Shown piece after piece: positions 14,091 through 45,410 of a stretch of DNA of 64,000 nt. This DNA is from Escherichia phage Gostya9. The notes beneath the pieces are model-generated. The model ran no database searches. It worked only from the letters and a program-made list of their open reading frames with translations, and was not told the origin of the DNA. Where the stretch lies: the sequence record NC_047979.1. One strand, given 5' to 3'. A program made the position numbers and the translations under genes. Position 1 is the first letter of the stretch. Every line of letters starts with the position of its first letter.

Positions 14091-14119
14091 ATTATACAGA
14101 ATTTTAAGGCTTAAAGCAA
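14091..14119 (-). promoter_or_regulatory. sigma70-type early promoter
   Basis: minus-strand TTGCTT-17-TATAAT (plus-strand attata-17-aagcaa) with conserved AATTTATGAA leader. Confidence 0.65.
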
Positions 14120-14136
14120 CTGAATTTTTTAATTAC

Positions 14137-14565
14137 TTACCAATCGTTAACGAAACCTGAGAACTCAGAAGTTAATACTTGTTCAAATTTCTCTGCAATT
14201 TCAGGATGATCTTTGCAGATCAGCTCAATACAGGCTTCTGGAGTCATTCCTTCATCTTCAGGATCACCATAATACTTGTCCCAAAGATCATCAGGGATGA
14301 TGTGCTCTGCCAAATCTTGGAAATAAACTGCCTGGTAACGTGGGGCTTCTTCAGCAAAGAGTTCTTCGATCTCTTCATCTGCCTCACCTTTGTAATCTGC
14401 CATTAATAAGGCATCAGTTGCGTAACACTCCCAGACCATCAAGCGTTCAGAAATAGGATTAGACTTATCCTGAACGTAAGACTGAAACAGGGTTCGGAAA
14501 GTTGCCTTAACTTGTTCAAACTTATCTGCTGCTGCGAAAACTAGAGCTTTATCAACTTTGTTCAT
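14137..14565 (-). CDS. hypothetical acidic protein
   Basis: 142-aa ORF. Confidence 0.5.
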   Translation of the reverse strand: MNKVDKALVFAAADKFEQVKATFRTLFQSYVQDKSNPISERLMVWECYATDALLMADYKGEADEEIEELFAEEAPRYQAVYFQDLAEHIIPDDLWDKYYGDPEDEGMTPEACIELICKDHPEIAEKFEQVLTSEFSGFVNDW

Positions 14566-14595
14566 TTTTATTCCTTCTCATCAATTTATAAAGTA

Positions 14596-14625
14596 ATTAT
14601 ACAGAAACTTAGGCATTTTAGCAAA
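14596..14625 (-). promoter_or_regulatory. sigma70-type early promoter
   Basis: TTTGCT-18-TATAAT on minus strand. Confidence 0.55.
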
Positions 14626-14732
14626 TAAAACTTTTAATTAAAATGCCTAGTCCTGTACCAACAGCAATACAAATGATTATAAGTATTGCTACTGCTTGTA
14701 TGATTCGTTTAATAATGGCCCCAGCTATACAC

Positions 14733-15254
14733 TTAGACATTTAACATCCAGCTAGTTTTATCATGAGAAGTATACTTACCACTCATGATGTCTTCCAGTC
14801 GTACCGGTGATTTTGCATACTCTACACAAACGTTAATATAGCGAGGGTCTCCCATTAACTCAAAGTGAGTATGCCCATGTAAGTTCTTCTTGCCCCTTAG
14901 CTCTCCCGGATGCACTGGAGCATGGGAAAGCCAGAAGTTTTTATATTTAACTAGTGATTGTATGTTATCTACAATTCCCACTAAGTCTTTGAAAGATAAC
15001 CCTTCTCGTTCTAAGTCGTGGTTCCCCAAAACTAATGTAGTTCTAACATTGCTAAAGAGTTTTTCGAACTTCTCCAAACCATTTCTAGATACAAATGCAT
15101 CTCCTAAAGTATAAAATACTGTACGCTTATCCTTCATGGATGTAATAGTATCCATGATAAATTCATCATGCTCTTCCATAGTAGAGAAGATTGGTCTGAA
15201 TTTAGTAATATTTGCATGTCCTAAATGGAGATCGCTCCAAAAGCAGACTTTCAT
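14733..15254 (-). CDS. calcineurin-like metallophosphoesterase
   Basis: 173 aa; DLHLGH, GDAF, LGNHD and GHTH motifs. Confidence 0.7.
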   Translation of the reverse strand: MKVCFWSDLHLGHANITKFRPIFSTMEEHDEFIMDTITSMKDKRTVFYTLGDAFVSRNGLEKFEKLFSNVRTTLVLGNHDLEREGLSFKDLVGIVDNIQSLVKYKNFWLSHAPVHPGELRGKKNLHGHTHFELMGDPRYINVCVEYAKSPVRLEDIMSGKYTSHDKTSWMLNV

Positions 15255-16129
15255 TAAAGAATCCTCTGTATGCCACAGCTATTATTTTTGTCAGTGGTAA
15301 ATGTTGTGATTTTGCCAGTTTCATCATTAACTTGCGCAACCGTCAACTGCCCGTTGAAGACACCGCCAGTATCTAGGTAAACACGATTCTGGTATAAAAT
15401 AGGGTAAGGTACTCCAGTATGCCCATGAAACACAAAGTCTACCTCATTAACTGGAGGTACTTCTACCATGTATTTTTCTTTAAATCCTGCATAACGCTGG
15501 AAATACGGGTGTTCCTCACTATTTTTGGACAAATGGAAGCCTATTTCTTGTATTACATCTCGATCCCATAAGTATGGTTCAACATGGTATTCAGGATGGT
15601 CATGTGGGTCTTCCTTAGCTGCTTCTACTTGTGCAATAAGGCTATCCCATACTGGGGTTTCTACTTCGTTACCGCATTCTTTGTACGTAAAAGGTACACC
15701 ACCATGAACAACACCATATTTCTTGCCACGATGCAGCACAGTCAGAAATACTGGAAGTTTTTCAGCCATGTCTTCGGCAATATTTTTAATGGTATCTGTA
15801 TCTAGTTCATTCATAGCCCACATACCACCGTTATACATCCAGTTAGTCCAATCTCCTCCAATCATAAACTGGTCGTGGTTTCCACGAACGCTACAGAAAC
15901 GTGGATTATACAAGAATTTGGCTAAAACTTGTAGGTTCTGCGTGCCTCGGTCAATTAAGTCCCCTACACATACAACGCAATCTTTCTTGCCGTTATACCC
16001 AGCTAATTGTAGTGCATCTTCTAGTAAATCGTTGCAACCATGAATATCACCAACAAAGAATAAGTTAACATCATCAGGTACTACTAGTGTTTTATGTACA
16101 TTAAATTCTTTTTTCATAATTATTCCCAA
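15254..16129 (-). CDS. Ser/Thr protein phosphatase (PPP family)
   Basis: 291 aa; GDIHGC, GDLIDRG and GNHD signature motifs. Confidence 0.8.
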   Translation of the reverse strand: MGIIMKKEFNVHKTLVVPDDVNLFFVGDIHGCNDLLEDALQLAGYNGKKDCVVCVGDLIDRGTQNLQVLAKFLYNPRFCSVRGNHDQFMIGGDWTNWMYNGGMWAMNELDTDTIKNIAEDMAEKLPVFLTVLHRGKKYGVVHGGVPFTYKECGNEVETPVWDSLIAQVEAAKEDPHDHPEYHVEPYLWDRDVIQEIGFHLSKNSEEHPYFQRYAGFKEKYMVEVPPVNEVDFVFHGHTGVPYPILYQNRVYLDTGGVFNGQLTVAQVNDETGKITTFTTDKNNSCGIQRIL

Positions 16130-16365
16130 ATAACATTTAAAATAGTTGTACCATAGTTATTAGATAGTTTGAGAGTATAACCCTCTTTATAAATGGCTTT
16201 TATGGCCTCATAACTAATTTCATCACGGTTAAACTGCACATAAGAACCACCAATCTCCACAGAAGAAACTATTCTCTTTTTAACATACTTATATGGTTTC
16301 TTTCTGTTCTTGAGAAGAGCAGCTCTATTAACCCTAGCTAAATGTTTTGCTTGCTCTGCTAACAT
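16120..16365 (-). CDS. hypothetical protein
   Basis: 81-aa ORF. Confidence 0.45.
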   Translation of the reverse strand: MLAEQAKHLARVNRAALLKNRKKPYKYVKKRIVSSVEIGGSYVQFNRDEISYEAIKAIYKEGYTLKLSNNYGTTILNVIWE

Positions 16366-16392
16366 TTAATCCTCCTATCAATCTATACAAAT

Positions 16393-16421
16393 ATTATACC
16401 AAAATTTTTAGCTGAAAGCAA
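16393..16421 (-). promoter_or_regulatory. sigma70-type early promoter
   Basis: TTGCTT-17-TATAAT on minus strand. Confidence 0.65.
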
Positions 16422-16424
16422 GTA

Positions 16425-16456
16425 AAATAAAAGCCTGATCCGCTAAGATCAGGCTT
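16425..16456 (-). terminator. rho-independent terminator
   Basis: AAGCCTGATC..GATCAGGCTT hairpin followed on minus strand by TTTTATTTT. Confidence 0.6.
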
Positions 16457-16462
16457 GCTTTA

Positions 16463-17177: not shown

Positions 17178-17210
17178 AATATATACCTCTCTTAACTAAT
17201 TTATGTATAT

Positions 17211-17239
17211 ATTATATAATAACTAGGGCTAAAAGTCAA
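17211..17239 (-). promoter_or_regulatory. sigma70-type early promoter
   Basis: TTGACT-17-TATAAT on minus strand. Confidence 0.6.
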
Positions 17240-17252
17240 CTACTTTTTTATC

Positions 17253-17669
17253 TTAATCTACTGTATGTATACATCTTTTCCTAACTAGATACATAGTTAT
17301 TGGGTAAATTGAGTACATAAGTATCGGGGAGAAAAGAGTGAAATATGCTGTAACTCCCCCAGCTAACATCAAAGGTATTAATGCTAGAGTAAGGGCCATA
17401 AGAATCATACCGAATGAAACAGCCAAAGCTATGGATATAGGATTCTCTAGTTCCACCCATAACCAACAATATTTCGAATCTCTATGGCAATTGCATTTAC
17501 AAACGCCGAATGAACCCATAATTATATACTCTAGTCCGTGAATAACCTTTATTAATAAGCTATTTCGGGTAGTTAATGCAATGATAGTAAAGACTATCAT
17601 TAAAACGAATACTACTAGACTTATTTTCCAGATACCTAGCAGTATCATAATGAATAGTTCTGCAAACAT
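17253..17669 (-). CDS. multi-pass membrane protein
   Basis: 138 aa, several hydrophobic segments. Confidence 0.45.
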   Translation of the reverse strand: MFAELFIMILLGIWKISLVVFVLMIVFTIIALTTRNSLLIKVIHGLEYIIMGSFGVCKCNCHRDSKYCWLWVELENPISIALAVSFGMILMALTLALIPLMLAGGVTAYFTLFSPILMYSIYPITMYLVRKRCIHTVD

Positions 17670-17746: not shown

Positions 17747-18160
17747 TTAAACTAGTTCGACATGACCGCCATCATAGGTACCACGTTTTATTTCATCGTG
17801 ATAGTCTCCCGAAGCATTCCAATCAGCACCAAAACGAAGTTTAATGCCTAGTTCTTTACCAGCTTGTTCAAAAGCCTTTTTAATTGCCCAAAATGCTTCT
17901 AAATCATTCCAATCAATTTTGCCATTAATATATGGAGCAAAATCGATAGCATCCCCAGTAATATGTTTGCTTTTACTAGGATCTTTTAGAAATGAAGTAC
18001 CATTAGCAATGTTCTGGGCACTTTGTGCTACTGTACGAATACCTTGCACGATTGTGAAATCGTACGGAGATAATTCTAAAGCCCTACGAGCTACTTTTTG
18101 TAGTTCAGGCTTAACGGTTGCTAATTGTTTTTCGCTATTTTTACCAAATTTAAAACTCAT
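17747..18160 (-). CDS. endolysin, L-alanyl-D-glutamate peptidase type
   Basis: 137 aa; H..D..H zinc-peptidase pattern (KHITGDAIDF ... GGHVEL); same length as T5 endolysin as recalled. Confidence 0.7.
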   Translation of the reverse strand: MSFKFGKNSEKQLATVKPELQKVARRALELSPYDFTIVQGIRTVAQSAQNIANGTSFLKDPSKSKHITGDAIDFAPYINGKIDWNDLEAFWAIKKAFEQAGKELGIKLRFGADWNASGDYHDEIKRGTYDGGHVELV

Positions 18161-18813
18161 ATTGACCTACCTAAAGATCTCTGTTGTGGGGAACAGAGCT
18201 TTGCTAAATATTCCTTGAACTGTTCAGAATCGGCTGTATCTACCGGATTATCTTTCCAAGCAATACCAATGTACCCAGCATAGATATTTTTTAGATTGAA
18301 GTATGGGCAAGTGTATATGTACTTAAAAGTAACGTTTTTAAACGCAGGTATATTTAACCCCATATATTTATTTACTCTTACCCTTAAATCCGATACGTAG
18401 TTAAAGCCCTCTAAATGACGTCTGTATAATTCAGACGTTTTATTTACCGCTTTATCGGCCAAGTCAGCCCTATCTAATTGCGCATTACTTTCCCATGCAA
18501 TAATATTGGAATAATCATTGATAGCATCTGGTTTATACTTGACTACAAAAACAGCATCTGCACCCGTCTGAGAGAAGAGAACCATGCTCTTTTCCCTCGC
18601 CACATTAGGGAAGTTATCTATCCTCTGGGTTTGTAAATCTTGTAAAACTGCAGACGTGGAAAAAGTCTTTAAGAATGACATCACCTCACTAGTATGACTA
18701 ACAAATAAGAAAATAATGACAGCAACTAAGATAGTTAGCAGACGTTTAAGAAGCGATGCTGGGTCTTTCGCTTCTTGGAGCAGTACTGTTAATAATTGTA
18801 AGAACTTTTCCAA
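18157..18813 (-). CDS. putative holin
   Basis: immediately upstream of endolysin; TM segment LTILVAVIIFLFV; TTG start 7 nt after AGAGGAGG RBS gives 218 aa. Confidence 0.55.
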   Translation of the reverse strand: MEKFLQLLTVLLQEAKDPASLLKRLLTILVAVIIFLFVSHTSEVMSFLKTFSTSAVLQDLQTQRIDNFPNVAREKSMVLFSQTGADAVFVVKYKPDAINDYSNIIAWESNAQLDRADLADKAVNKTSELYRRHLEGFNYVSDLRVRVNKYMGLNIPAFKNVTFKYIYTCPYFNLKNIYAGYIGIAWKDNPVDTADSEQFKEYLAKLCSPQQRSLGRSI

Positions 18814-18838
18814 TTTGTAACCTCCTCTAACCAATACC

Positions 18839-18867
18839 ATTATACTAATTTTGGAGGAAAATTACAA
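18839..18867 (-). promoter_or_regulatory. sigma70-type promoter (weaker -35)
   Basis: TTGTAA-17-TATAAT on minus strand. Confidence 0.45.
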
Positions 18868-18927
18868 TGTGTTTTTAAAGATTTTCTTTGGAGCACAAAA
18901 TTATGTCGTTGTCAAGAAGAATTTTAG

Positions 18928-21739: not shown

Positions 21740-21770
21740 ATTTAATCCTCTTGCCTCAATCTATGAATAT

Positions 21771-21799
21771 ATTATACAAAAGTTTAGGCATCTATGCAA
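21771..21799 (-). promoter_or_regulatory. sigma70-type early promoter
   Basis: TTGCAT-17-TATAAT on minus strand. Confidence 0.65.
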
Positions 21800-21817
21800 C
21801 TAAAATTTATCACAAAA

Positions 21818-21850
21818 ATAGCCCAGTCGCAAAAGTGCAAGCTGGGCTTT
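21818..21850 (-). terminator. rho-independent terminator
   Basis: AGCCCAG..CTGGGCT hairpin followed on minus strand by ATTTTTGTG. Confidence 0.55.
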
Positions 21851-22632: not shown

Positions 22633-22958
22633 TTCAGATCCTTTTCGTTAATTAGAATATCAGTAAACAGTGGAGTAAATCCTAGAATCATAGGAGGTCC
22701 AAAGGTTTGCATAGCTACCCACAGTTGCATAGTGATCATCCCATCTTTAATCTCTGGATCTTTATACTCTTCGATACGTTTTTTGGCAAAGGCAACTACA
22801 TCTGGAGTGCTACCATTCTTTATAACATGATCATGCCAAAATTGTGTATTCTCACTACGCAGGAATGTTAAGACGTCCTTAGTTGCTGGAATCTGCACTG
22901 TGCTATTGATGTTTAACTTTTTCACGTTCTTCTCTCTGTTATTCTTTAGGAAACCCAT
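22629..22958 (-). CDS. hypothetical protein
   Basis: 109-aa ORF. Confidence 0.45.
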   Translation of the reverse strand: MGFLKNNREKNVKKLNINSTVQIPATKDVLTFLRSENTQFWHDHVIKNGSTPDVVAFAKKRIEEYKDPEIKDGMITMQLWVAMQTFGPPMILGFTPLFTDILINEKDLK

Positions 22959-23448
22959 TAAACTCTTCGATGACTGCTAGAGTTCCGTGCAACTCTAATC
23001 GTAATCCATTAGCTTTGTATACTGCAGATTCTAAGTCTTCATAATCGAATAGACCACCGTAAACTCTAATACCTTCGTTATTATTAGTATAAACTCTCCA
23101 TTTCTGGAGATGAGTATCCCAAGATACTCCTAAGTATCCCGAATTGCTAGTAGCAGTCCTATTTCTATTATTTTCCTGCCTAGAACTATCTCTGAGATTA
23201 CTCCACCTATTATCATCCCTAATTCTATTGATATGATCAACAAATTCAGGAATATACCCTTCCATAAACAAGAAGGCTAATCTATGCGCTAGTTCCCTGT
23301 GTCCATCTCCAACTCTAATCTGAATATATCCATAGTTATTAGGCTTATTATTTATAGGTTTTATTCTACCACTTTTTAGACGTCTAGAAAATAATCCTGT
23401 TTCTGGATCATATATCAGCAGTTCTTTTAACCTTTCTTGTGTAATCAT
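22939..23448 (-). CDS. HNH homing endonuclease (paralog 2 of 3)
   Basis: 169 aa; MITQERLKEL..HRLAF..VDH.NR..NRW.NLRD..ENN.NRT, same architecture as 13250..13786. Confidence 0.75.
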   Translation of the reverse strand: MITQERLKELLIYDPETGLFSRRLKSGRIKPINNKPNNYGYIQIRVGDGHRELAHRLAFLFMEGYIPEFVDHINRIRDDNRWSNLRDSSRQENNRNRTATSNSGYLGVSWDTHLQKWRVYTNNNEGIRVYGGLFDYEDLESAVYKANGLRLELHGTLAVIEEFNGFPKE

Positions 23449-24015: not shown

Positions 24016-24045
24016 TTCAAACCTCTCTCATCAATTTATAAATAT

Positions 24046-24074
24046 ATTATAACAAGAAAAGAGAGGTTTAGCAA
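24046..24074 (-). promoter_or_regulatory. sigma70-type early promoter
   Basis: TTGCTA-17-TATAAT on minus strand. Confidence 0.65.
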
Positions 24075-24091
24075 ATGAATTATTTCAGAAG

Positions 24092-24439
24092 TTAATCATA
24101 TGCCCACCATAACCCACGCTTACGCATGTCATGATCACGATTATAGTCGTAATTTTCTGGATCTTTCATTACGCGGTGGAGTTCTTGACGATTCCCTTGA
24201 CGAACCATTTTATTAGAGTGCCACTTAACATTCTTACTAACAGAATTCCAGCTAAAACCATCCTTTTTCTCATTACGAATGGTTGCTTCTTCCATTTCCT
24301 GTTCTACCTCATCCCAGGATTTAGCATAAGTAACACGAATCCAATAGCCACTTGCTCTGAGGAAAGTATATCCCTGGGTGTAATTAGCTTTAGACTTCCA
24401 CCACTGATCACCAGATTGTTTACGATAAGTACGGCTCAT
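24092..24439 (-). CDS. hypothetical protein
   Basis: 115-aa ORF. Confidence 0.45.
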   Translation of the reverse strand: MSRTYRKQSGDQWWKSKANYTQGYTFLRASGYWIRVTYAKSWDEVEQEMEEATIRNEKKDGFSWNSVSKNVKWHSNKMVRQGNRQELHRVMKDPENYDYNRDHDMRKRGLWWAYD

Positions 24440-25893: not shown

Positions 25894-25923
25894 TTGGTTT
25901 CCCTCTCATTAATTTATATAAAT

Positions 25924-25952
25924 ATTATAGCAATAAATAAGAGAGAAAGCAA
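25924..25952 (-). promoter_or_regulatory. sigma70-type early promoter
   Basis: TTGCTT-17-TATAAT on minus strand. Confidence 0.65.
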
Positions 25953-25967
25953 ATGAATTTTTAAACT

Positions 25968-26043
25968 TGGTGCGGGATACGAGAGTCGAACTCGTGTCTA
26001 CTGGTTGGAAGCCGGTTATTCTAGCCGCTGAACTAATCACGCA
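25968..26043 (-). tRNA. tRNA, tentative Gly (UCC)
   Basis: CCA + acceptor + T-arm GTTCGACTC; anticodon loop CTTCCAA; hand-folded. Confidence 0.5.
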
Positions 26044-27477: not shown

Positions 27478-27714
27478 AAATTCTTTAGTTTACTAAGGCT
27501 ATTAGCTCGGCGTAACTACAGCACCTTCGCTTCGAGCGGAAGGAACCGCGTCATCTCGCAAACCCGATACACTATTCAGTTGCCGCTGAATCTAGTGGAC
27601 TAATCTAGAACTTCTCCCGAGTCGTAGGATCGTGCTTTTTGGCAGCCAGTCCTAGGTCGAGCTAATACCTTAGTGAACTATGATGAGGATTTCTCCCCAT
27701 CAATTTATATAAAT

Positions 27715-27743
27715 ATTATAACAAGAAATTAAGCATCAAGCAA
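27715..27743 (-). promoter_or_regulatory. sigma70-type promoter heading the tRNA / small-RNA unit
   Basis: TTGCTT-17-TATAAT on minus strand; no protein gene downstream before tRNAs. Confidence 0.6.
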
Positions 27744-27761
27744 ATGAGTTTTTCTTGAAAT

Positions 27762-27837
27762 TGGTAGCGGGTTCCAGTACTGCCCTGGACTTACTTAGCT
27801 TATGAGACTAAGAAGAACTCTATGCCTTCCACCCGCA
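27762..27837 (-). tRNA. tRNA, tentative Met/Ile2 (CAU); atypical T-loop
   Basis: CCA + acceptor; anticodon stem CTTAGT/GCTAAG with loop CTCATAA; T-loop GGCAGTA non-canonical. Confidence 0.4.
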
Positions 27838-28740: not shown

Positions 28741-28939
28741 TGTACATTTAAAAGTATTCAAATACTTGTTTAAACACTTTTAAATATGTTTCCAACTTAG
28801 ATAACTATTATATCTAGTTTTAAGGCACTGAGCAAGTCAGATTTTGAAGAATTTGCTCAGTGCTATATTAGTTAGTCGAACTTAGGAGTAACAATTAAAG
28901 AGAATGGGAGTTCGAAAACTTCATCAATTTATACAACTA

Positions 28940-28969
28940 TTATACCAGAAATTTAAAGCAAAAGGCAAG
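28940..28969 (-). promoter_or_regulatory. sigma70-type promoter (weaker -35 TTGCCT)
   Basis: TTGCCT-18-TATAAT on minus strand, upstream of a tRNA pair. Confidence 0.5.
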
Positions 28970-28998
28970 TACATTTTTAAAAATTCTGTTCGGAGGAG

Positions 28999-29461: not shown

Positions 29462-29550
29462 TGGTGGAAGAAGTGGGAATCGAACCCACAAGGCTATATT
29501 TCAAACCGACAGATTAGCAATCTGCTGCAATACCGTTATGCTATTCTTCC
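29462..29550 (-). tRNA. tRNA-Ser (GCU), type II
   Basis: 89 nt; perfect acceptor GGAAGAA/TTCTTCC; anticodon stem GCAGA/TCTGT with loop TTGCTAA; T-arm GTGGG-TTCGATT-CCCAC. Confidence 0.55.
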
Positions 29551-29565
29551 GAATTTATAAGATAT

Positions 29566-29594
29566 ATTATATTAGAAATTTAGCTTCATAGCAA
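29566..29594 (-). promoter_or_regulatory. sigma70-type promoter driving tRNA-Ser/tRNA-Met
   Basis: TTGCTA-17-TATAAT on minus strand. Confidence 0.6.
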
Positions 29595-30090
29595 GAAAAT
29601 TTTTCAAGTTTTCGGTAGACATCTCATCCACATCTACAGGAGAAACAAACCCATTTAATTGTCTAGCAAATTTTTCACCGGCAGGATCATTATCCCCAAC
29701 AGCTACCAATTTAAAAGGTAGTAATTTCAATTGCTTTAACAACGCTTTTCCGGGGGAAGAACCCAACATTGCTAGGGCAGGATAACCAGCATTATGTAAT
29801 GCTACAGCCTTAAATACAGATTCAGCAATCAATACTACTTTTTCATCCCCACTGAGAGTTTCTAGCCCCCATACACACTGTGCGGTAGAATAAGTAAAAT
29901 ATCTAGCTTCAGAGGGGCACTTACCATGACCTTTTGGAGCAGAAGGATTATAAGTCTGATAGCCTCTCAACATTCCAGAGAAGTCATACAACGGGACTGT
30001 TAGCCATCCTTCCGGACTTAACCAGCAATGATATTTATCTGTATCAAACCCTCTGGATAAGAGATGTTCTGTTAGTTCATCAACAGTCAT
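29572..30090 (-). CDS. hypothetical protein
   Basis: 172-aa ORF. Confidence 0.5.
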   Translation of the reverse strand: MTVDELTEHLLSRGFDTDKYHCWLSPEGWLTVPLYDFSGMLRGYQTYNPSAPKGHGKCPSEARYFTYSTAQCVWGLETLSGDEKVVLIAESVFKAVALHNAGYPALAMLGSSPGKALLKQLKLLPFKLVAVGDNDPAGEKFARQLNGFVSPVDVDEMSTENLKNFLAMKLNF

Positions 30091-30124
30091 ATTAGATTCC
30101 TCTCTCTCTCAAATTTATAAATAT

Positions 30125-30153
30125 ATTATACAGAGAATTTAGCATTCAAGCAA
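30125..30153 (-). promoter_or_regulatory. sigma70-type early promoter
   Basis: TTGCTT-17-TATAAT on minus strand. Confidence 0.65.
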
Positions 30154-30249
30154 TTGAATTTTTAAACTTTTTAGTGGAAAAATCTCAAGGCATTTAATGG
30201 CAGCACGTTGTTGCTGTAATAAGAGTATATGGTTCTAAAGAACCAAATA

Positions 30250-30307: not shown

Positions 30308-31258
30308 TTACTTGTTACGCATATCCATAATCATCTGGCCATCGTAACCAGTGCCAACCACAGTCTGAGGTACACCACCTTGATACTTCTGAGCACGAAT
30401 CATTTCAACTTCTAGTTGCTTCCAGCGAATCATCTCAGGAGTAATGGTACGTTGCAGAGCGGCGTTAGCTTCAGCCTCTTTCTTAGCTGCGTACAGTTTA
30501 GCATCTGCATCACGTTCGTTTGCAATAGCTTGGTTGTTACGAGCTTCACGATCTGCTTCTGCTTGTTTAACCTTCTGCTGTGCTTCTTGTTCAACACGAG
30601 CCAACTCAGCTTTCGCAGCATTAACTTGTTCTTCACGAACTTTGGTATTCTGTACCTGTTCCATGATTACAGGCGGCAAAGTAATATCCTGAAGGAACAC
30701 TTGCTTAACTGTGTAACCATAAGGGCGTGCATACTCTTCAACTTCCTGTTGAATTGCAGTTTGTAATTGAGCCTGAATTTTAGCATCAAACAAATCTTGT
30801 GCTTTAGGAACAGACTTGCCGAACTCACGAATAGTGGATAACAGCTTCTCTGTTACGTACTTATCTAGAGCCTGATCCTGAGTACCTGCGTTAATACGGT
30901 TAATCGGTGCCTTAGAACCATCAAACTGCAACATAACAGTCAGATCAACAGTGGATTTAAACTTATCCTGACTAGGAACCTGAAGTTTATCTAATTTTAC
31001 CGCAATGTCTTTTGTACTAAAAGTATCAAAAGATGCAAATGGGTTTACAATATGGAAACCCGGTAATACTGGATTAGGGTCTACTTTACCCAGGAATGTT
31101 TGAGTTTTAACCGTACCATCAGAAACAATAGTATATGAATTAAAAGCTAAAATCAAGCCTGCTAAACCAACTACAGCACCAACTACGATGCGCTTAACAG
31201 CGCGAATGTTCTTTTGTTCGGTGGTCAACGGCTTGTCAGATTTGTTTTTGCTAAACAT
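30308..31258 (-). CDS. SPFH/band-7 (prohibitin-like) membrane protein
   Basis: 316 aa; N-terminal TM, SPFH-like core, Ala/Gln/Glu-rich coiled-coil C-terminus. Confidence 0.6.
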   Translation of the reverse strand: MFSKNKSDKPLTTEQKNIRAVKRIVVGAVVGLAGLILAFNSYTIVSDGTVKTQTFLGKVDPNPVLPGFHIVNPFASFDTFSTKDIAVKLDKLQVPSQDKFKSTVDLTVMLQFDGSKAPINRINAGTQDQALDKYVTEKLLSTIREFGKSVPKAQDLFDAKIQAQLQTAIQQEVEEYARPYGYTVKQVFLQDITLPPVIMEQVQNTKVREEQVNAAKAELARVEQEAQQKVKQAEADREARNNQAIANERDADAKLYAAKKEAEANAALQRTITPEMIRWKQLEVEMIRAQKYQGGVPQTVVGTGYDGQMIMDMRNK

Positions 31259-31899: not shown

Positions 31900-32408
31900 A
31901 TTCCTGTGTCGATATTTTTAAGAACTCTCGTAAAAACTCTTAAAAATACAGACGATACCGGGAGAGTCATAAGTCTCACTCATTAAGTATTTCAAGACAA
32001 AATACAGTAACGTCTATTATTTTCCAGTTTAAGTCAAGGTGACTTAGTGGTTATGCCCTGCGGTATACTGGGGACTCGGTTAGGTTAGGGTCATGACTTC
32101 CTACCTTTTTGCTGCTACTCAACAGGAGTTATCGCGAATTACCTGTGCTATTGTGCACCATTAGTGGCATCTCTCATGCCAGCATTTCCCACTTTGTGGA
32201 TAGTTTGAAAAACTACTCCGATATGGAGGGAGAACTTCACTATCCTAGAATACCTTCTAAAGTTCTTCTTTAGCCTGGACATAGTTAAATCGTAATAAAA
32301 CTATTCAGCAGACTGGTTGGTTAGCCTGGAACCAACTACCGCGTGGTTTAGGCAGTGCGCAACTAACCTCGGAAGCTTTTACGTTAAAAGCACCAGTTAT
32401 CCAGTTCT

Positions 32409-32480
32409 TACCGATCGTAGGATTCGAACCTACATCTTCCACCAGTTACGGCTTGATAATACCGTTTATACTAGATCGGC
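32409..32480 (-). tRNA. tRNA, anticodon unresolved
   Basis: acceptor GCCGATC/GATCGGT, T-arm GTAGG-TTCGAAT-CCTAC; CCA not encoded. Confidence 0.45.
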
Positions 32481-32556
32481 AGTGTTACTACATAAGTGAT
32501 TTCCACACCCCACTATTTATAACTTAGAGAAGAATTACTCTCTAATTTATGAATAT

Positions 32557-32585
32557 ATTATACAGAATTTATAAGCATTTAGCAA
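32557..32585 (-). promoter_or_regulatory. sigma70-type promoter upstream of isolated tRNA
   Basis: TTGCTA-17-TATAAT on minus strand. Confidence 0.6.
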
Positions 32586-33036
32586 ATGAATTTTTAGAAA
32601 ACTCGCTAGCAATCAAGGCGGCTGTTTTACCATCATAACGCCCTGGAAATTCTGCCTTAATAGTTTTCATTAAGAGAGCTTTGGTAATGCCTGGGTTTAG
32701 TTTAACTAATTCTGCAAAGTATTTACGAATTTCAGTATCAGATAACTGAGGAGGCAGATACTCCTGCAACCACTTATTTAGAATGTATTCATACTGAGCG
32801 GACTGCAAGCTATAACTATCAAGATCTTGACCATGAAGTTTAGCTTTCATTTGGTTAATGCTTTTTAGTTGAGCTTTGAGATAAGACACAAATTGTTCAG
32901 AAGTGATGAAATCTTTATCAATACGCTGAAGATCCCCGATTATGGTCTGGTAGCTTTTAGCGACTTCTTTATCAGAACCATTAAACTTAGAATCCTGCAA
33001 AGCTCTACGCAAAACAGCTAAAATATTCTCTTCCAT
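32569..33036 (-). CDS. hypothetical protein
   Basis: 155-aa ORF. Confidence 0.45.
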   Translation of the reverse strand: MEENILAVLRRALQDSKFNGSDKEVAKSYQTIIGDLQRIDKDFITSEQFVSYLKAQLKSINQMKAKLHGQDLDSYSLQSAQYEYILNKWLQEYLPPQLSDTEIRKYFAELVKLNPGITKALLMKTIKAEFPGRYDGKTAALIASEFSKNSFAKCL

Positions 33037-33206: not shown

Positions 33207-33237
33207 ATTTCGCTTCCTCTCATTAATTTATGAAAGT

Positions 33238-33266
33238 ATTATACAGAAGTTTAAGTATTTAAGCAA
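33238..33266 (-). promoter_or_regulatory. sigma70-type early promoter
   Basis: TTGCTT-17-TATAAT on minus strand. Confidence 0.65.
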
Positions 33267-33281
33267 ATAAATTTTTAAGTT

Positions 33282-33749
33282 TTAAGTTTTAGTGACAGCA
33301 GGCTTATAAAATGTATGCCCCTTAATCTTAGTTGTTTTCTTAAACTTCTTTGTCCAGTACGGTTTATCTTTACCACTATGGAAGTATAAGGCTCCATGTG
33401 TAGGATCTTGTGGTAAATCAACGTAGTATATCACTCTAGCTAAATTCTTGGCGGTTTGCCAAGCCTCATCGGTTTTATCAACTTTTGGTCTCTTAGATAC
33501 CCAAGAGAACTGGTTAGACTGATATACTACTTTACAGTAGGAATCTGGGAATTTACCGGAGTTTACACGGTTTTTAGTAACATGTGCAATCGCCGTCATT
33601 CCCTTTATGCCCTCACCACGACTTTCGAAATAGATATTTTTAGCAATGCAATCTATTTCTTTTGCATCGTGCGATGCCTGACTACTAAAGCTGAAGGTAA
33701 GGGCAGCTACTAAAAGCAAAGCTGCCTTCATTCTTTTTACTCCTGCCAA
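33282..33749 (-). CDS. secreted cell-wall hydrolase (SleB-like Hydrolase_2 family)
   Basis: 155 aa; signal peptide; AKNIYFESRGE..AIAHVTKNRV..YCKVVYQSNQFSW pattern. Confidence 0.6.
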   Translation of the reverse strand: MAGVKRMKAALLLVAALTFSFSSQASHDAKEIDCIAKNIYFESRGEGIKGMTAIAHVTKNRVNSGKFPDSYCKVVYQSNQFSWVSKRPKVDKTDEAWQTAKNLARVIYYVDLPQDPTHGALYFHSGKDKPYWTKKFKKTTKIKGHTFYKPAVTKT

Positions 33750-34054: not shown

Positions 34055-34083
34055 AATAGCCTCGTTTCACCAATTTAAAATAT

Positions 34084-34112
34084 ATTATACAGAAAACTTA
34101 ATAAATTAGCAA
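34084..34112 (-). promoter_or_regulatory. sigma70-type early promoter
   Basis: TTGCTA-17-TATAAT on minus strand. Confidence 0.65.
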
Positions 34113-34495
34113 ATACATTTTTAAATTGTGAAACTAGTAAACCGATAAACAGCCTAGGGGCGCCACAGGCCATATCTTATGAGCCATGTACCTTTGATCT
34201 AGGGTTTGAATCATCAACGAATACTTTGCATCTTTTAGCTTTAGAAGTTTAGAAGTTTGAGTTCTTTAAACTTTTCAGCTTTCATACTTAAATGTTGATC
34301 TTTGAAGTTGTGTCGGTAATATCAACGACGCTTTGTTTTTACGTGTCAGATTAAATGTCTGATGTAATAAACATAATCTCCAATAGATTATACTTTATAG
34401 TATGGTCAGCGGTCTTATTTAACCTCGTATTTCAACCGCTGCTGCGAGGTAAGATGCTTGGGCTTTCGTCTACCGATTTACTAGCTTTTAAATTA

Positions 34496-35369: not shown

Positions 35370-35410
35370 ATTTGTTTTCCTTTTATTGTTTTCTCAAATT
35401 TATGAAATAT

Positions 35411-35439
35411 ATTATACAGAATTTTGGAGCCGGAAGCAA
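35411..35439 (-). promoter_or_regulatory. sigma70-type early promoter
   Basis: TTGCTT-17-TATAAT on minus strand. Confidence 0.65.
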
Positions 35440-35440
35440 A

Positions 35441-36142
35441 TCAAATTTTCATTTTTTCGATCATAGCTGCAACACAATAGCTCTCAACTAAGGCATCGAA
35501 TGCTGGGTCGTGCTTAACCGGATATATCCCGTAACGAATGGTGTCCATCTTCTCCATTTTAGCTATTGCCCAGCTAATACCTTCGGTCTCTAGAGCCTTA
35601 TAACTGTATCCAGCTTGCATCCAGAGATTACGAAGGGATCGAACATTACCCAAATTCCAGAATTTCCACGGAACTATTTCTTCATTGGTTCCAGCATGGA
35701 AAGTGTTTGCAGAGTAGATAGTCATATCAAACTCTGGGCCATTGCCATAATACAAAGCATTTTCGCCTAGAGCCAATTCCATAATGTTTTTAGCCATAGA
35801 ATAAGCTGCATAGTTAGAGCCGAGCTTATTAGTACAGTGATGTTTACCATCTTGAAAAGCAATCAGCTTTGGATTACGCTCGTTCATAGCTTCCATAATG
35901 TGGAAAGCAGACGGACTATTTTTAGCTTGATCCATCCAGAATGCTAGAGTAGATGCTGTAACTTTGGCACCAGAATTAAGCTGATCCTGCACATCCAAAG
36001 TAACAAACACTAGATCAGGGTCTTTATCAATTCCGTGCATAGCCACAAAAGCGAAAGAAGGCATTACGATATGAGTAGTACCACAATCTCCCGGAGTTCC
36101 TAGAGATTCAATATCTAACATACCAAATGGTTTTACTTTCAT
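35441..36142 (-). CDS. DEDDh-type 3'-5' exonuclease-like protein
   Basis: 233 aa; MLDIESLG (Exo I-like D-x-E) and HDPAFDA (Exo III-like) motifs. Confidence 0.5.
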   Translation of the reverse strand: MKVKPFGMLDIESLGTPGDCGTTHIVMPSFAFVAMHGIDKDPDLVFVTLDVQDQLNSGAKVTASTLAFWMDQAKNSPSAFHIMEAMNERNPKLIAFQDGKHHCTNKLGSNYAAYSMAKNIMELALGENALYYGNGPEFDMTIYSANTFHAGTNEEIVPWKFWNLGNVRSLRNLWMQAGYSYKALETEGISWAIAKMEKMDTIRYGIYPVKHDPAFDALVESYCVAAMIEKMKI

Positions 36143-36965: not shown

Positions 36966-37003
36966 TATTTGTTTTCCTTTTTGTTTATCAATTTATGAAG
37001 TAT

Positions 37004-37032
37004 ATTATACGAGAATTTGAAGCGTTTAGCAA
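37004..37032 (-). promoter_or_regulatory. sigma70-type early promoter
   Basis: TTGCTA-17-TATAAT on minus strand. Confidence 0.65.
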
Positions 37033-37048
37033 ATGAATTTTTTAAAAA

Positions 37049-37327
37049 TTATCTGCCAACCATCTTAGCTTGTTCGGCATCTGAGACATATTGATACGCT
37101 CCTTTATTATACGCTGGAGCAGTACACATTTTCTTACGCTCAATCTCTTCTTGAGCTTTTCTTTCGCGTTCAGCTAATTCTTCATCCAGATAAACTAAAC
37201 GTTGTTCTGGAGGAGGTGGAAGACGTGTTTCTGGCTCCCCAATATTAGCCTTTCTTATTTGACGAGGTGATTGTACACGTTTTCTCAACGGTTTAAATCC
37301 TAATGAATTTGAGTTATAAATTCGCAT
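37049..37327 (-). CDS. hypothetical protein
   Basis: 92-aa ORF. Confidence 0.45.
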   Translation of the reverse strand: MRIYNSNSLGFKPLRKRVQSPRQIRKANIGEPETRLPPPPEQRLVYLDEELAERERKAQEEIERKKMCTAPAYNKGAYQYVSDAEQAKMVGR

Positions 37328-37354
37328 AAAGCCCTCCTCACTTTCAATACGAAT

Positions 37355-37383
37355 ATTATACTAAATTAGAGGGCTTTAAGCAA
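37355..37383 (-). promoter_or_regulatory. sigma70-type early promoter flanked by 9-bp inverted repeat
   Basis: TTGCTT-17-TATAAT; AAAGCCCTC / GAGGGCTTT flank the element. Confidence 0.6.
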
Positions 37384-37403
37384 CTGAATTTTTAAATTAT
37401 TTA

Positions 37404-38392: not shown

Positions 38393-38426
38393 ATTCGTAT
38401 TTATCCTTTGTTTATTAATTGAGTAT

Positions 38427-38455
38427 ATTATATTTAAATTTCACTAAATAAGCAA
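38427..38455 (-). promoter_or_regulatory. sigma70-type early promoter
   Basis: TTGCTT-17-TATAAT on minus strand. Confidence 0.65.
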
Positions 38456-38493
38456 ATGAAATTTAAGTATAATAGCCCCGAAGGCTATTTAAA

Positions 38494-41772: not shown

Positions 41773-41803
41773 TGATTTTCCTCTTTCTCACTATTTCAGG
41801 AAT

Positions 41804-41832
41804 ATTATAGCAAATCAGATAGCGATTAGCAA
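41804..41832 (-). promoter_or_regulatory. sigma70-type promoter for nrdB
   Basis: TTGCTA-17-TATAAT on minus strand. Confidence 0.65.
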
Positions 41833-41848
41833 GTAAAATTTCAAAGAA

Positions 41849-41877
41849 AAAGGAGACCCGAAGATCTCCTTATTTTT
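41849..41877 (-). terminator. rho-independent terminator after nrdA
   Basis: GGAGA..TTCG..TCTCC hairpin followed on minus strand by TTTTT. Confidence 0.5.
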
Positions 41878-44209: not shown

Positions 44210-44289
44210 TTGGTTTTCCTTTTTATGGTTATCAGAATTTAGGAAATAGTTTACTTTATTCTCAGTCATTTGGCAAATAAAATTTTCTG

Positions 44290-44324
44290 ATAGAAAAGGC
44301 CCGGGTATTTTCATACCCAGGCCT
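44290..44324 (-). terminator. rho-independent terminator
   Basis: AGGCCCGGGTAT..ATACCCAGGCCT hairpin followed on minus strand by TTTTCT. Confidence 0.55.
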
Positions 44325-44353
44325 TCTGTGTTGTCAGTCTAGTTTTTGGCCAC

Positions 44354-44551
44354 TTAAGTTCTCAGCAGAATATCTATTGAGGTACTTAGTTCATTATAAT
44401 TGAAGGGCCGATTTGGATTTGAGGTTACAATTTTCCACGCTAGGGTAGTCTTAGGACTATCTTCCCCTTCCTTACGTGTAATCATATTAGCAGCGCTCAA
44501 TGAGGTATGATGAATTTTAGTTTTTCGGCGTAGATGTACAACGTTTCCCAT
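44354..44551 (-). CDS. small hypothetical protein
   Basis: start moved to Met just downstream of phoH stop (65 aa). Confidence 0.4.
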   Translation of the reverse strand: MGNVVHLRRKTKIHHTSLSAANMITRKEGEDSPKTTLAWKIVTSNPNRPFNYNELSTSIDILLRT

Positions 44552-44552
44552 A

Positions 44553-45314
44553 CTACACCTTCCCCATGTCTTTAAAAATATCGTAGAATGCTTTAGACTC
44601 AGCAGAACGAACGTTATCAATCAATTCGATCATTGAGAATGGGGCATTTTCATACTTCTCATAAACTTCCATAAGAAGTGCTAGACCTGAGTCACCTTTA
44701 ATGTCTTTTTGGGCTATATCTCCACAGATAATTAAACGGCAGTCTTGTCCTACACGAGTTAGGAGACAAACCATTGCCTCAACGGAAATATTCTGAGCTT
44801 CATCGACAATTACATAGGAGTTGTTGAAAGTTCTGCCACGAGCATGTTCTATAGCCAAAAATTTAATTTTCTGACGTTCGACATATCCCTTATAGGCGTG
44901 ATCACCGATGGCCCATTTCATACCATCAGCTATTGGCTCCAACCAAGGCTCTAGCTTTTCTGCTAGATCACCAGGAAGCATACCAAGAGACTTACCTAGA
45001 GGTTCATTAGGACGGACGAGAATCACTTGCTCAATATCTGAGTGAGTGTCTACGAGTTCCTGAGCTGCAAGAACGGACGGGATAAAGGTTTTACCAGTAC
45101 CTGGCTCACCGATACCCACAGTCACTGTGTTGTTCTTGATCATATTGATATATGATTTTTGCTCGCGGTTTTTACCTACTAGGGATTTAGCAACTGGGTT
45201 GACGTAATCATTAGAAAAATCAGCCTGAATTACGTTACTCTCATATTTGTTGCCACGCTTTCTTGAACCATTGCGGTTCTCTCTTTTTTGACGTGCTTTT
45301 CCCATAAATAACAC
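44553..45314 (-). CDS. phoH: PhoH-like ATPase
   Basis: 253 aa; Walker A GEPGTGKTF; PhoH-family architecture. Confidence 0.8.
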   Translation of the reverse strand: MLFMGKARQKRENRNGSRKRGNKYESNVIQADFSNDYVNPVAKSLVGKNREQKSYINMIKNNTVTVGIGEPGTGKTFIPSVLAAQELVDTHSDIEQVILVRPNEPLGKSLGMLPGDLAEKLEPWLEPIADGMKWAIGDHAYKGYVERQKIKFLAIEHARGRTFNNSYVIVDEAQNISVEAMVCLLTRVGQDCRLIICGDIAQKDIKGDSGLALLMEVYEKYENAPFSMIELIDNVRSAESKAFYDIFKDMGKV

Positions 45315-45381
45315 TCCTATAGTGTACTTCGCTTCTAACAGAGGATCAACAAAAAGATCTTGTTTATCAACTTACAAATAT

Positions 45382-45410
45382 ATTATACCAGTATATATAG
45401 TAAAAAGCAA
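45382..45410 (-). promoter_or_regulatory. sigma70-type promoter for phoH
   Basis: TTGCTT-17-TATAAT on minus strand. Confidence 0.65.

Follow-up and report, generated by a model that had tools for sequence, protein, structure and literature searches.

For PN25 and several other promoters of bacteriophage T5, recognition by sigma-70, the start site and the early kinetics are known from experiment (PMC7472727; PMC12464699). In the T5-like phage AKFV33, 32 promoters were described with TTGCTw and TATAATA elements 17–18 bp apart, an AAAAATT in the −43 region and a TAAATT in the +1 region (Niu, 2012; PMC3326045), and an ATATT discriminator present in all early promoters sets these apart from the late ones (Klimuk, 2020; PMC7472727). 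Polymerase escapes quickly from PN25 with its native initial transcribed region, and the anti-sequence cuts the amount of product about 10-fold (PMC12464699; PMC10911233); as far as the work of Kammerer (1986) and the Hsu laboratory is relayed in PMC12464699, replacement of +3 to +20 leads, through impaired promoter escape, to about 10-fold less productive transcription. This effect of the replacement is transcriptional, at the level of DNA. In the T5 GenBank entry (AY543070), the sites orthologous to those considered here are annotated as 75-nt “promoter” features, which by our alignment reach from about −55 to +20.

The stretch of DNA analyzed here (“the window”) comprises 64,000 nucleotides of Escherichia phage Gostya9 (NC_047979.1); it is 97% identical to DT57C and belongs to a Tequintavirus, a T5-like coliphage. 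The exact pattern TTGCWW-N17-TATAAT occurs 24 times in the window, where 0.12 matches are expected, and 100 shuffles of the window never gave more than one match; all 24 have the orientation of their neighboring genes. Eighteen of them lie on the minus strand, from 14091-14119 to 45382-45410, and the range marked out by the first-pass annotation ends exactly at these two outermost matches. That annotation had counted more than 20 minus-strand cassettes with an exact 17-bp spacer: the count is too high for the exact pattern, but holds under relaxed criteria, which add sites at 17216 (TTGACT), 28812 (TTGCTC) and 28944 (TTGCCT, 18-bp spacer) to give 21 cassettes on this strand and, with seven on the plus strand, 28 in all. 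The spacer measures 17 bp in 26 of the 28 and 18 bp in the other two. The six exact plus-strand matches, from 47579 to 57763 (47.6–57.8 kb), fall outside the range first annotated.

The proposed kinship with the strong early promoters of T5 was borne out. Collinear alignment and sequence matches to T5 features identified orthologs of T5 P11, P13b, P14a, P15a, P15b, P15c, P-K28a and an unnamed promoter preceding pol, and PN25 itself is present in this Tequintavirus window. On the minus strand, the cassettes at 14065..14139 (about −48 to +20, with its −10 at 14096-14091; leader ATAAATTAATGAGAGAGG) and 14570..14644 (leader ATAAATTGATGAGAAGG) have homologs of T5.032 and T5.033 (142 aa), respectively, downstream. 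The cassette at 16367..16441, joined to a terminator hairpin upstream (leader ATAGATTGATAGGAGG), drives the T5.036 homolog; that at 17185..17259, with TTGACT as its −35 (leader ATAAATTAGTTAAGAGAGG), drives the T5.038 homolog and thioredoxin; and that at 21745..21819 (leader ATAGATTGAGGCAAGAGG), with TTGCAT and again after a terminator hairpin, drives the operon of the T5.047 homolog. Downstream of 24020..24094 (leader ATAAATTGATGAGAGAGG) lies the T5.053 homolog, and the P11 ortholog (25898..25972) drives the T5.058 homolog, with tRNA-Ile and tRNA-Met next. The P13b ortholog (27689..27763), in which a 5′ hairpin comes after ATAAATT, precedes an RNA2H-like stable-RNA gene and then tRNA-Ala and tRNA-Leu. 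A weaker cassette with TTGCTC and a long leader (CTAAGTTGGAAAC) is the P14a ortholog (28781..28855); for the P15c ortholog (28913..28988; TTGCCT, 18-bp spacer, leader ATAAATTGATGAAG), no ORF of at least 40 aa opens within 150 nt. At the P15b ortholog (29540..29614), tRNA-Ser begins 8 nt past the predicted start site (ATAAATTC-GGAAG...), and the P15a ortholog (30099..30173; leader ATAAATTTGAGAGAGAGAGG) drives the T5.076 homolog (172 aa).

Further along the minus strand, the cassette at 32531..32605 stands before a non-coding RNA and a tRNA-like gene, its leader ATAAATTAGAGAG folding as a 5′ hairpin, and 33212..33286 (leader ATAAATTAATGAGAGG) has the T5.082 homolog downstream. The start-site motif is displaced by −1 at 34058..34132 (TTAAATTGGTGAAACGAGG), which drives the T5.084 homolog, and by +1 at 35385..35459, which has a longer leader with the Shine-Dalgarno sequence (SD) further downstream (ATAAATTTGAGAAAACAATAAAAGGA) and drives the T5.086 homolog; the leader is also longer at 36978..37052 (ATAAATTGATAAACAAAAAGGA), with the T5.089 homolog downstream. 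Two promoters, at 37329..37403 and 38401..38475, combine a cassette-like upstream half with divergent leaders (ATTGAAAGTGAGGAGG and ATTAATAAACAAAGGA) and drive the T5.090 homolog and a 169-aa ORF, respectively. Another divergent leader (CTGAAATAGTGAGAAAGAGG) is found at 41778..41852, where the promoter follows a terminator hairpin and drives nrdB, and at 45356..45430 (leader GTAAGTTGATAAAC) phoH lies about 60 nt further on.

The plus-strand cassettes are likewise of the early type. One follows a terminator at 47559..47633 (leader ATAAATTTGAGGAGG), another at 50686..50760 has a long and structured leader (ATTGAATTGAGAGAC), and the PN25 ortholog is located at 54328..54402: positions 54333-54402 are identical to published PN25 (reference sequence from PMC4447248) at 62 of 70 sites, and completely so from −10 to +20. 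The leader is long at 55354..55428 (ATAGTTTGAAAGAAC). At 56540..56614 (leader ATAAATTAATGAGAG), a cassette after a terminator drives a 323-aa ORF, which judged by size and position is probably ligA, and the P-K28a ortholog (57715..57789; leader ATAAATTGATAAGGAAG) drives what is, from its position, probably ligB. The site at 62257..62332 (TTGCTG, 18-bp spacer, leader GTAAGTTAGAGAAG) matches the unnamed annotated T5 promoter before pol.

About 75 gene starts were called on the window's coding strands, together with 12 tRNAs. Since many more than 21 genes depend on the 21 cassettes of the minus strand, most cassettes head operons. A strong hairpin with a T-run lies directly upstream of four of the 28, and a weaker version upstream of two more; the modular order of promoter, gene and terminator suggested in the first-pass annotation thus holds only in part.

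The cassettes have a clear anatomy. The AT-rich upstream element noted earlier is an A-rich block just 5′ of the −35, where positions outside the search pattern have A in as many as 27 of 28 cassettes. An A immediately follows the −10 in 27 of 28, and the consensus discriminator reads ATATT. The distance from the −10 to the predicted start is 6 nt in 21 cassettes and 7 nt in four more, with A at the predicted +1 and T at +2. From +1 to +7 the heptamer ATAAATT is shared by 23–28 of the 28 cassettes at each position; a purine-rich stretch follows at +8 to +17, and from about +17 onward the information content is nearly zero. In total, the 23 positions 3′ of the −10 (consensus ATATTT-ATAAATTGA-purine run) carry some 15 bits; upstream of 57 internal genes the figure is 2.7 bits, from the SD only. 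The conservation claimed for the leader is therefore real, and the logo contradicts the notion that it is no more than an AT-rich ribosome-binding region. ATARATT precedes 14 of 18 promoter-proximal starts and none of the 57 internal ones.

We consider it very probable that the cassettes are early-class sigma-70 promoters of a T5-like phage, in which the leader is made up mainly of the promoter's initial transcribed region together with a ribosome-binding site. By orthology with PN25 and T5, they would be recognized by sigma-70, start at the A of ATAAATT and act early. Epseptimavirus, Sugarlandvirus and Novosibvirus have the same architecture, as have two Vibrio phages. Each unit of about 75 bp would be read by unmodified host RNA polymerase. 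In order, it has the “−43 region” (A-rich and UP-like), TTGCTW as its −35, a 17-bp spacer, a perfect −10 (TATAAT(A)) and a discriminator that is AT-rich and 6 nt long (ATATT-like); transcription would begin at the A of ATAAATT and continue into sequence that is first AT-rich and then purine-rich. The part from +1 to about +17 would belong to the promoter as DNA: easily melted and scrunched, and purine-rich, it would speed the exit of polymerase from a tightly bound, escape-limited promoter, a role that we assign to it by analogy with the published work on PN25 and T5. In cassettes that make mRNA, a strong SD (GAGAGG or AAGGA) would lie within a short, unstructured, A/U-rich 5′UTR of about 20–27 nt, and in short leaders SD and purine run would overlap.

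From leader conservation, the first-pass annotation had proposed a shared post-transcriptional element as well, an inference that is weakly supported. Of the leader, the SD GAGAGG alone plainly acts after transcription, a trivial point; ATAAATT is anchored to the −10, is unstructured and is kept before RNA genes. In a fuller form of the idea, the common 5′ end, AUAAAUUGA and then the purine run, would enhance translation (through an A/U-rich S1 site before the SD) or govern mRNA stability or processing in all early transcripts. The start codon lies 27–41 nt past the −10 in 18–19 cassettes, so that the whole conserved block, SD included, is 5′UTR, and the leaders are A/U-rich and unstructured, as are efficient translation initiation regions in general, where ribosomal protein S1 and A/U-rich enhancers play a part. 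Against this, the register of the heptamer is set by the −10 or start site and not by the ATG, even in the cassettes shifted by 1 nt, and ATAAATT is missing from all 57 internal translation starts. It is kept atop long leaders, where the ATG sits 57–148 nt away, and in cassettes whose gene encodes a tRNA or stable RNA: the claim that the cassettes extend to tRNAs was correct, those at 29571 (8 nt before tRNA-Ser), 27720 and 32562 preceding tRNA or stable-RNA genes. Purines make up a fraction of 0.79 of +8 to +17 in the nine cassettes without a nearby start codon and 0.86 in the coding ones, over a background of 0.53, and in long-leader cassettes the SD travels with the ATG while the purine run remains at the start site. 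No conserved structure was found in the mRNA leaders (z near 0; MFE from 0 to about −6 kcal/mol, with one exception), and Rfam returned no leader match, its sole hits above thresholds being tRNAs. In PN25, the effect of the region was measured on RNA synthesis itself (PMC12464699). A function of the leader RNA may exist alongside the promoter function, in a dual role; as an explanation of the conserved block, the RNA-level element appears doubtful. Still harder to credit, and in our view very improbable, is that the likeness among cassettes reflects recent copying of a single mobile or recombining module, after the manner of the promoter-stem-loop cassettes of T4-type phages, and not selection at each position. 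Several breakpoints of homology between the window and T5 do lie at cassette edges (10640, 25973, 27762, 28919 and 30187), and some cassettes are fused to terminator hairpins. Yet only six of 28 adjoin a hairpin, and indels of whole genes must end in intergenic regions, where promoters sit anyway. The similarity, moreover, is position-specific and not block-wise: mean pairwise identity among cassettes is 0.70 at +1 to +9 and 0.60 in the discriminator, but 0.42 in the spacer, 0.39 at +10 to +20 and 0.31 at +21 to +40 (random, 0.26), and distant genera with unrelated flanks conserve the identical positions.

By itself, a demand for AT-rich plus purine-rich sequence would not fix one heptamer (matched at each position by 23–28 of 28 cassettes), nor would it preserve that heptamer in phages with a dNMP kinase of only about 30% identity; part of the conservation may thus lie beyond promoter escape. 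Selection experiments on other promoters found escape slowed by a TG near +6 and by −10-like sequences at +3/+4 (PMC5961368); TG at +7/+8 and TAnnnT at +2 to +7 both belong to the T5 motif, which counts against the escape reading. The start-site motif might be a class-specific control site, acting as a −10-like element that makes sigma-70 hold polymerase in a pause at about +10 to +20 or serving as the shut-off target of phage factors (D5, gpT5.026 or others), a reading that we regard as unlikely. TAnnnT occupies +2 to +7 in 24 of 28 cassettes against a background of 0.024 per position, although it is possibly a by-product of AT-richness. E. coli promoters at which polymerase makes sigma-70-dependent proximal pauses are reported to combine a canonical −10 with a spacer of 6-7 nt, Y-R(+1)-Y and, about 11 bp past the −10, a −10-like element (PMC7876045). 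The cassettes have the first three, taking the start site as predicted; TAnnnT lies 13 bp past the −10, and the hexamer at 11 bp is TATAAA or CATAAA, without the key final T. GreB leaves the rate of escape from the native N25 sequence unchanged, which argues against strong backtracking there (PMC12464699). As to shut-off, the T5 promoters P-G25, P-J5, P-K28b and P12, late or of other classes, have neither TTGCTW nor ATAAATT, gpT5.026 acts near the discriminator in a temporal switch that is described as having no known mechanism (PMC7472727), and the window encodes homologs of gpT5.026 and D5; both pausing and factor binding at the motif are putative. In Vibrio phage 70E37-3, which is divergent, ATAGAATGA or ATAAACTGA takes the place of the motif, with TAnnnT preserved. 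Extended to the family, T-A-n-n-n-T (+2 to +7) followed by GA would be more than a sequence that eases escape: as a control element of the early class, it would be read by sigma-70 region 2, so that each early transcript meets a promoter-proximal pause or retains sigma, or by a conserved phage factor that turns early transcription off; this, too, we think improbable. We know of no antiterminator like lambda Q in T5. Were the control-element reading true, the unsolved early-to-late switch of T5 would become directly testable.

Among known systems, the early-class promoters of the window invite comparison with the PeSL promoter-stem-loop cassettes that Arbiol and colleagues reportedly described in T4-type phages in 2010. 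Both comprise many near-identical early promoter modules, some joined to hairpins, in a plastic region of small genes and tRNAs; most window cassettes, however, are hairpin-free, and a role in recombination is here putative. With the sigma-70 proximal-pause promoters (lambda PR′ and lac; G1p/G1d, Sun et al., 2021) they share the −10, the 6-nt spacer, Y-R-Y and an early TAnnnT, but differ from G1p/G1d in where the −10-like element lies (at 13 bp, or at 11 bp for a hexamer without the final T), and a pause is putative. The AKFV33 logo has the same consensus, −43 and +1 regions included, and a similar number of promoters; there, the +1 region is read as AT-richness only, the start-site part and the SD are not split, and no comparison is drawn across the family (PMC3326045). 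The likeness to the T5 early promoters themselves (PN25, those of the P25/P26 type, P-K28a, P15a and others; Bujard laboratory; AY543070) extends from the UP-like A block, TTGCTW, the 17-bp spacer and TATAAT to the ATATT discriminator, the transcribed region of ATAAATT and purines, and positional orthology. Nothing essential differs between these promoters and the cassettes, apart from a few spacer substitutions and some promoters gained or missing through indels. Early promoters of this class, very strong ones used by host polymerase, are already published, and the finding is real but ordinary; its sole and modest addition is that the start-site motif recurs across the Demerecviridae, including Proteus and Vibrio phages.

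The promoter cassettes lie in the early region of a Tequintavirus. With a 20-kb stretch of this region as the query, Escherichia phage DT57C was matched at 97% identity over 91% of the length, as were some 600 other T5-like phages; DT57C coordinates minus 275 approximate those of the window. The minus strand encodes the genes between ~10 and 45.4 kb and the plus strand those beyond 45.7 kb; a tRNA cluster of 12 genes is found at 25.3-32.5 kb. At 32408-32481 (minus strand) ARAGORN predicts a tRNA-Ser whose anticodon, ACT, is unusual and whose Rfam score is only 39 bits; in the corresponding area DT57C carries an annotated stable RNA of unknown function. At 13250-13786 (minus strand) a 178-aa ORF stands in place of the sequence that T5 and DT57C have there; it shares ~65% DNA identity with the T5 HNH endonuclease gene hegE and looks like a homing-endonuclease insertion. 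Tandem repeat arrays at 5208-5332, 6890-7055, 7381-7612 and 8357-8493 lie in non-coding sequence of the terminal-repeat (first-step-transfer) region. One is a nearly perfect array of 8.3 copies of the 15-bp unit ATAATAACTATAGAA, and another has ~7 copies of a 23-bp unit; the arrays are probably part of the repeat-rich stretch described close to the injection stop signal of T5 and BF23.

The pattern TTGCWW-N17-TATAAT has 24 matches in the window against 0.12 expected from dinucleotide-preserving shuffles, and each match is oriented as the local genes are. Eighteen of these are on the minus strand, the outermost at 14091-14119 and 45382-45410, which confirms the stereotyped cassette described by the first-pass annotation over exactly these limits; six plus-strand matches, at 47579-57763, had been left out. 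Allowing for one deviation adds minus-strand cassettes (named here by their -10-side coordinate) at 17216 (TTGACT), 28812 (TTGCTC) and 28944 (TTGCCT, 18-bp spacer) and a plus-strand cassette at 62301, for totals of 21 and 7, so that the claim of more than 20 minus-strand cassettes holds with the relaxed definition but not with the exact pattern (18). A generic sigma-70 and terminator scanner found 30 promoters versus 33.6 in shuffled sequence, and was too permissive to inform. The proposed organization into promoter, gene and terminator modules is borne out in part: a hairpin abuts six cassettes, but most cassettes head multi-gene operons. A strong hairpin with a T-run lies immediately upstream of cassettes 16398, 21776, 47602 and 56583, and a weaker hairpin upstream of 41809 and 38432. 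The terminator hairpins adjoin the promoters at 16420-16460 and 21800-21840 (minus strand) and at 47540-47580 and 56520-56560 (plus strand), and in the hairpin-abutting cassettes the T-run occupies the place of the upstream A/T-rich element of other cassettes.

A logo anchored on the -10 was informative at positions outside the search pattern. Just 5' of the -35 there is an A-rich block, with A in up to 27 of the 28 cassettes; the spacer has weak preferences; A immediately follows the -10 in 27 of 28, and the discriminator is ATATT-like. The start-site motif ATAAATT (+1 to +7, numbered from the predicted start site) is matched by 23-28 of the 28 cassettes at each position and is followed by a purine-rich run, with information near zero from ~+17 on. 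Mean pairwise identity (random, 0.26) is 0.70 over +1 to +9, 0.60 in the discriminator, 0.42 in the spacer, 0.39 over +10 to +20 and 0.31 over +21 to +40. TGCT recurs at roughly 10-bp intervals in some promoters, such as 57735-57763 (plus strand; TTGCTAAATGCTTAAATACTTGCTATAAT), and a GCT in the upstream part of the spacer is moderately conserved (13-17 of 28 cassettes).

The leader is more conserved than AT-rich ribosome-binding regions, contrary to the outcome that the first-pass annotation had named as refuting its reading. On the coding strands 75 gene starts were called, 57 of which are internal, that is, not within 45 nt of any cassette. Aligned on the start codon, the internal starts have ~0 bits over -45 to -21, and over -20 to -1 they have 2.7 bits, which are those of the Shine-Dalgarno (SD) sequence only. 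The cassettes, aligned on the -10, have 4.4 bits in the discriminator, 5.8 in ATAAATT and 4.8 over the ten bases that follow. ATARATT is found upstream of 14 of the 18 promoter-proximal starts and of none of the 57 internal ones. In most cassettes ATAAATT starts 6 nt past the -10; in six the register is shifted (by 1 nt in five and by 2 nt in the sixth), and the motif tracks the predicted start site, not the ATG. It is kept 8 nt 5' of tRNA-Ser in cassette 29571, ahead of a stable-RNA gene and then tRNA-Ala and tRNA-Leu in 27720, ahead of a non-coding stretch in 32562, and at the leader 5' end in 28812, 45387, 50729, 55397 and 62301, where the first ORF is 57-148 nt off. Coding cassettes have the ATG 27-41 nt past the -10, in most cases a 5'UTR of ~20-27 nt, and an SD at roughly +12 to +19; in 35416 and 37009, which have somewhat longer leaders, the SD (AAGGA) shifts with the ATG and a purine run remains at +8 to +13. 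Coding cassettes have a purine fraction of 0.86 over +8 to +17 and the nine others one of 0.79, compared with 0.53 for the sense strand overall. Because ATAAATT tracks the start site while the SD tracks the ATG, the leader is made up of two elements, one anchored on the start site and an SD anchored on the ATG, which coincide in short UTRs.

The suggestion that leader conservation reflects a shared post-transcriptional element is largely unsupported, given the anchoring on the -10, the retention of the motif before RNA genes and the lack of a common structure. Over their first 45 nt the mRNA leaders fold weakly, all but one having a minimum free energy of 0 to about -6 kcal/mol, with z near 0; an Rfam scan of the window returned tRNAs and nothing else, and no RNA structure common to the cassettes was found by folding or Rfam. 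A structured RNA leader is rejected on these z values and the absence of an Rfam family, and an element for translation only, as sole explanation, on the retention of the motif in RNA-gene and long-leader cassettes and its absence from the 57 internal starts. A 5' hairpin occurs in only some of the RNA-gene and long-leader cassettes (in 27720, z = -3.4). Stable hairpins lie immediately 3' of ATAAATT at 27689-27720 and 32531-32562 (minus strand) and 50729-50775 (plus strand), an example being GATGGGGAGAAATCCTCATC (z = -3.4); such hairpins might protect or mark the 5' ends of stable RNAs.

For a comparison of early and late promoters, rebuilt from the T5 record AY543070, we considered P-G25, P-J5, P-K28b, P12 and P10a, which are late or otherwise different; they have a -35 of the TTGACA or TTGATA type and are without ATAAATT. 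Two promoters of the window, that of the holin gene (18844) and one at 10673, are also without the motif, which therefore marks one class, not every strong promoter. The holin promoter (18810-18870, minus strand, -10 at 18844) is TTGTAA-17-TATAAT with its own conserved leader, GGTATTGGTTAGAGGAGGTTACAAATTG, seen also in T5, an Epseptimavirus and a Sugarlandvirus, and may represent a different promoter class for lysis genes. At 45548-45576 (plus strand) a perfect consensus TTGACA-17-TATAAT faces nrdD, divergent from the phoH cassette 45387, and its leader, AAGTGTAAAAATTCTGAGGAG, is unlike that of the cassettes. Relatives were chosen via a dNMP kinase probe, down to 28-35% protein identity, and in all of them TTG-N20-TATAAT is over-represented 15-40x on the gene strand. 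Logos from 9-13 sites each (four loci were searched with W at the last base, dropping ~40% of sites) show an A-T-rich discriminator, ATAAATTGA and a purine run after the -10 in Salmonella phage 100268_sal2 (Epseptimavirus), Klebsiella phage AmPh_EK80 (Sugarlandvirus), Proteus phage Stubb (Novosibvirus) and Vibrio phage VPG01 (Vipunavirus); the unclassified Vibrio phage 70E37-3 has the variant ACTTGT-ATAGAATGA/ATAAACTGA-AGAAACGGAG. The latter phage has its own stereotyped cassette, TTGTCA/TTGCTT-17-TATAAT-ACTTGT-ATAGAATGAAGAAACGGAG, near-verbatim before many genes (in its locus, L006, for example at 18021-18080, 22915-22974 and 30646-30705).

The cassettes are most probably early-class sigma-70 promoters of a T5-like phage, the leader being mainly the initial transcribed region. 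This reading rests on the anatomy, statistics and orthology of the cassettes, all observed directly; their start site, timing and escape mechanism we infer from experiments on T5 and on PN25 (N25), a classic T5 early promoter. The conserved leader would act on DNA, in open-complex formation, scrunching and escape, and in mRNA cassettes the initial transcribed region would merge with a short unstructured 5'UTR bearing a strong SD. When +3 to +20 of PN25 is replaced with an "anti" sequence, the yield of full-length RNA falls ~10-fold and escape takes about 45 min instead of 3, and the native initial transcribed sequence has been described as evolved for faster escape (PMC12464699). This reading may not account for all of the conservation, in that a need for AT- and purine-rich sequence would not fix one heptamer across genera. 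In high-throughput selection on other promoters, escape was slowed by a TG close to +6 and by -10-like sequences placed at +3 or +4 (PMC5961368); in the T5 motif, TG falls at +7/+8 and TAnnnT at +2 to +7. An element acting purely on RNA is unlikely to explain the leader by itself; that the leader also acts as an A/U-rich enhancer of translation is possible, at a low probability.

We regard as quite improbable a class-specific control role for the start-site motif, through a sigma-70-dependent pause or in the early-to-late switch, the mechanism of which was stated to be unknown by Klimuk et al. (2020; PMC7472727). Such a role would be in keeping with TAnnnT, which 24 of the 28 cassettes have at +2 to +7 (background, 0.024 per position) and which the divergent variant of Vibrio phage 70E37-3 keeps. 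It would also be in keeping with the presence in the window of homologues of gpT5.026, at 11659-12117 (minus strand), and of D5, at 58566-59285 (plus strand). The cassette also shares the canonical -10, 6-7-nt spacer and Y-R(+1)-Y of those E. coli promoters on which polymerase pauses at +10 to +20 in a sigma-70-dependent manner (Sun et al., 2021; PMC7876045). The distal class of these promoters has in addition a -10-like element ~11 bp downstream of the -10 (PMC7876045), to which the fit is loose, the element of the cassette lying 13 bp away, or 11 bp away as a hexamer that lacks the final T. GreB gives no faster escape from native N25 (PMC12464699), which argues against strong backtracking; one paper that links N25 with sigma-dependent pausing deals with the artificial N25anti, not the native sequence. 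Readings of the motif as an IHF site or as a signal for NAD capping gave no fit when it was compared by eye with the consensus sequences. That the cassettes resemble one another through recent copying, or as a mobile module, is very unlikely, in that conservation is position-specific and recurs in distant genera with unrelated flanks. T5 homology does break at or within ~20 bp of cassette edges at 10640, 25973, 27762, 28919 and 30187, as a mobile module would have it, and judging from sequence the cassettes could be joints at which gene modules are exchanged by recombination, although indels must fall in intergenic DNA anyway.

T5 early promoters have featured in textbooks since the 1980s and gave rise to the "T5 promoter" of expression vectors; Gentz and Bujard reportedly described, in 1985, homologies particular to the class, both near -43 and in the early transcribed region. 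The orthologous sites are annotated in the GenBank record of T5 (AY543070) as 75-nt "promoter" features, among them P-F30, P10a, P11, P13a/b, P14a/b, P15a/b/c, P-K28a/b and P31A/B, with sequences that match the window cassettes; as extracted, they span about -55 to +20 and therefore include the conserved transcribed region. Window positions 54333-54402 are the orthologue of PN25, with 62 of 70 positions identical to the published sequence (taken from primers in PMC4447248); the differences are confined to the last two -35 bases and the spacer, and -10 to +20 is identical. The identification as T5-type early promoters was thus correct. The ATATT discriminator is common to all known early T5 promoters and is their main difference from late ones (Klimuk et al., 2020; PMC7472727), and for the T5-like phage AKFV33 a logo of 32 promoters has been published, with the consensus TTGCTw, TATAATA, 17-18 bp spacing and AT-rich sequence at -43 (AAAAATT) and +1 (TAAATT) (Niu et al., 2012; PMC3326045). 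With annotation in the T5 record and a published logo for a T5-like phage, the cassettes and their leader are already known. The value of our analysis is in telling a start-site-anchored DNA element apart from the ribosome-binding site, which corrects the post-transcriptional reading. A family-wide comparison of the initial transcribed motif was not found in the literature examined, and its conservation, as judged from the family logos of 9-13 sites each, would be a modest addition: the motif is kept across Demerecviridae of Escherichia, Salmonella, Klebsiella, Proteus and Vibrio and is lacking in T5 late promoters, a class specificity that exceeds the needs of AT- or purine-richness and offers a concrete sequence to test in the early-to-late switch of T5.
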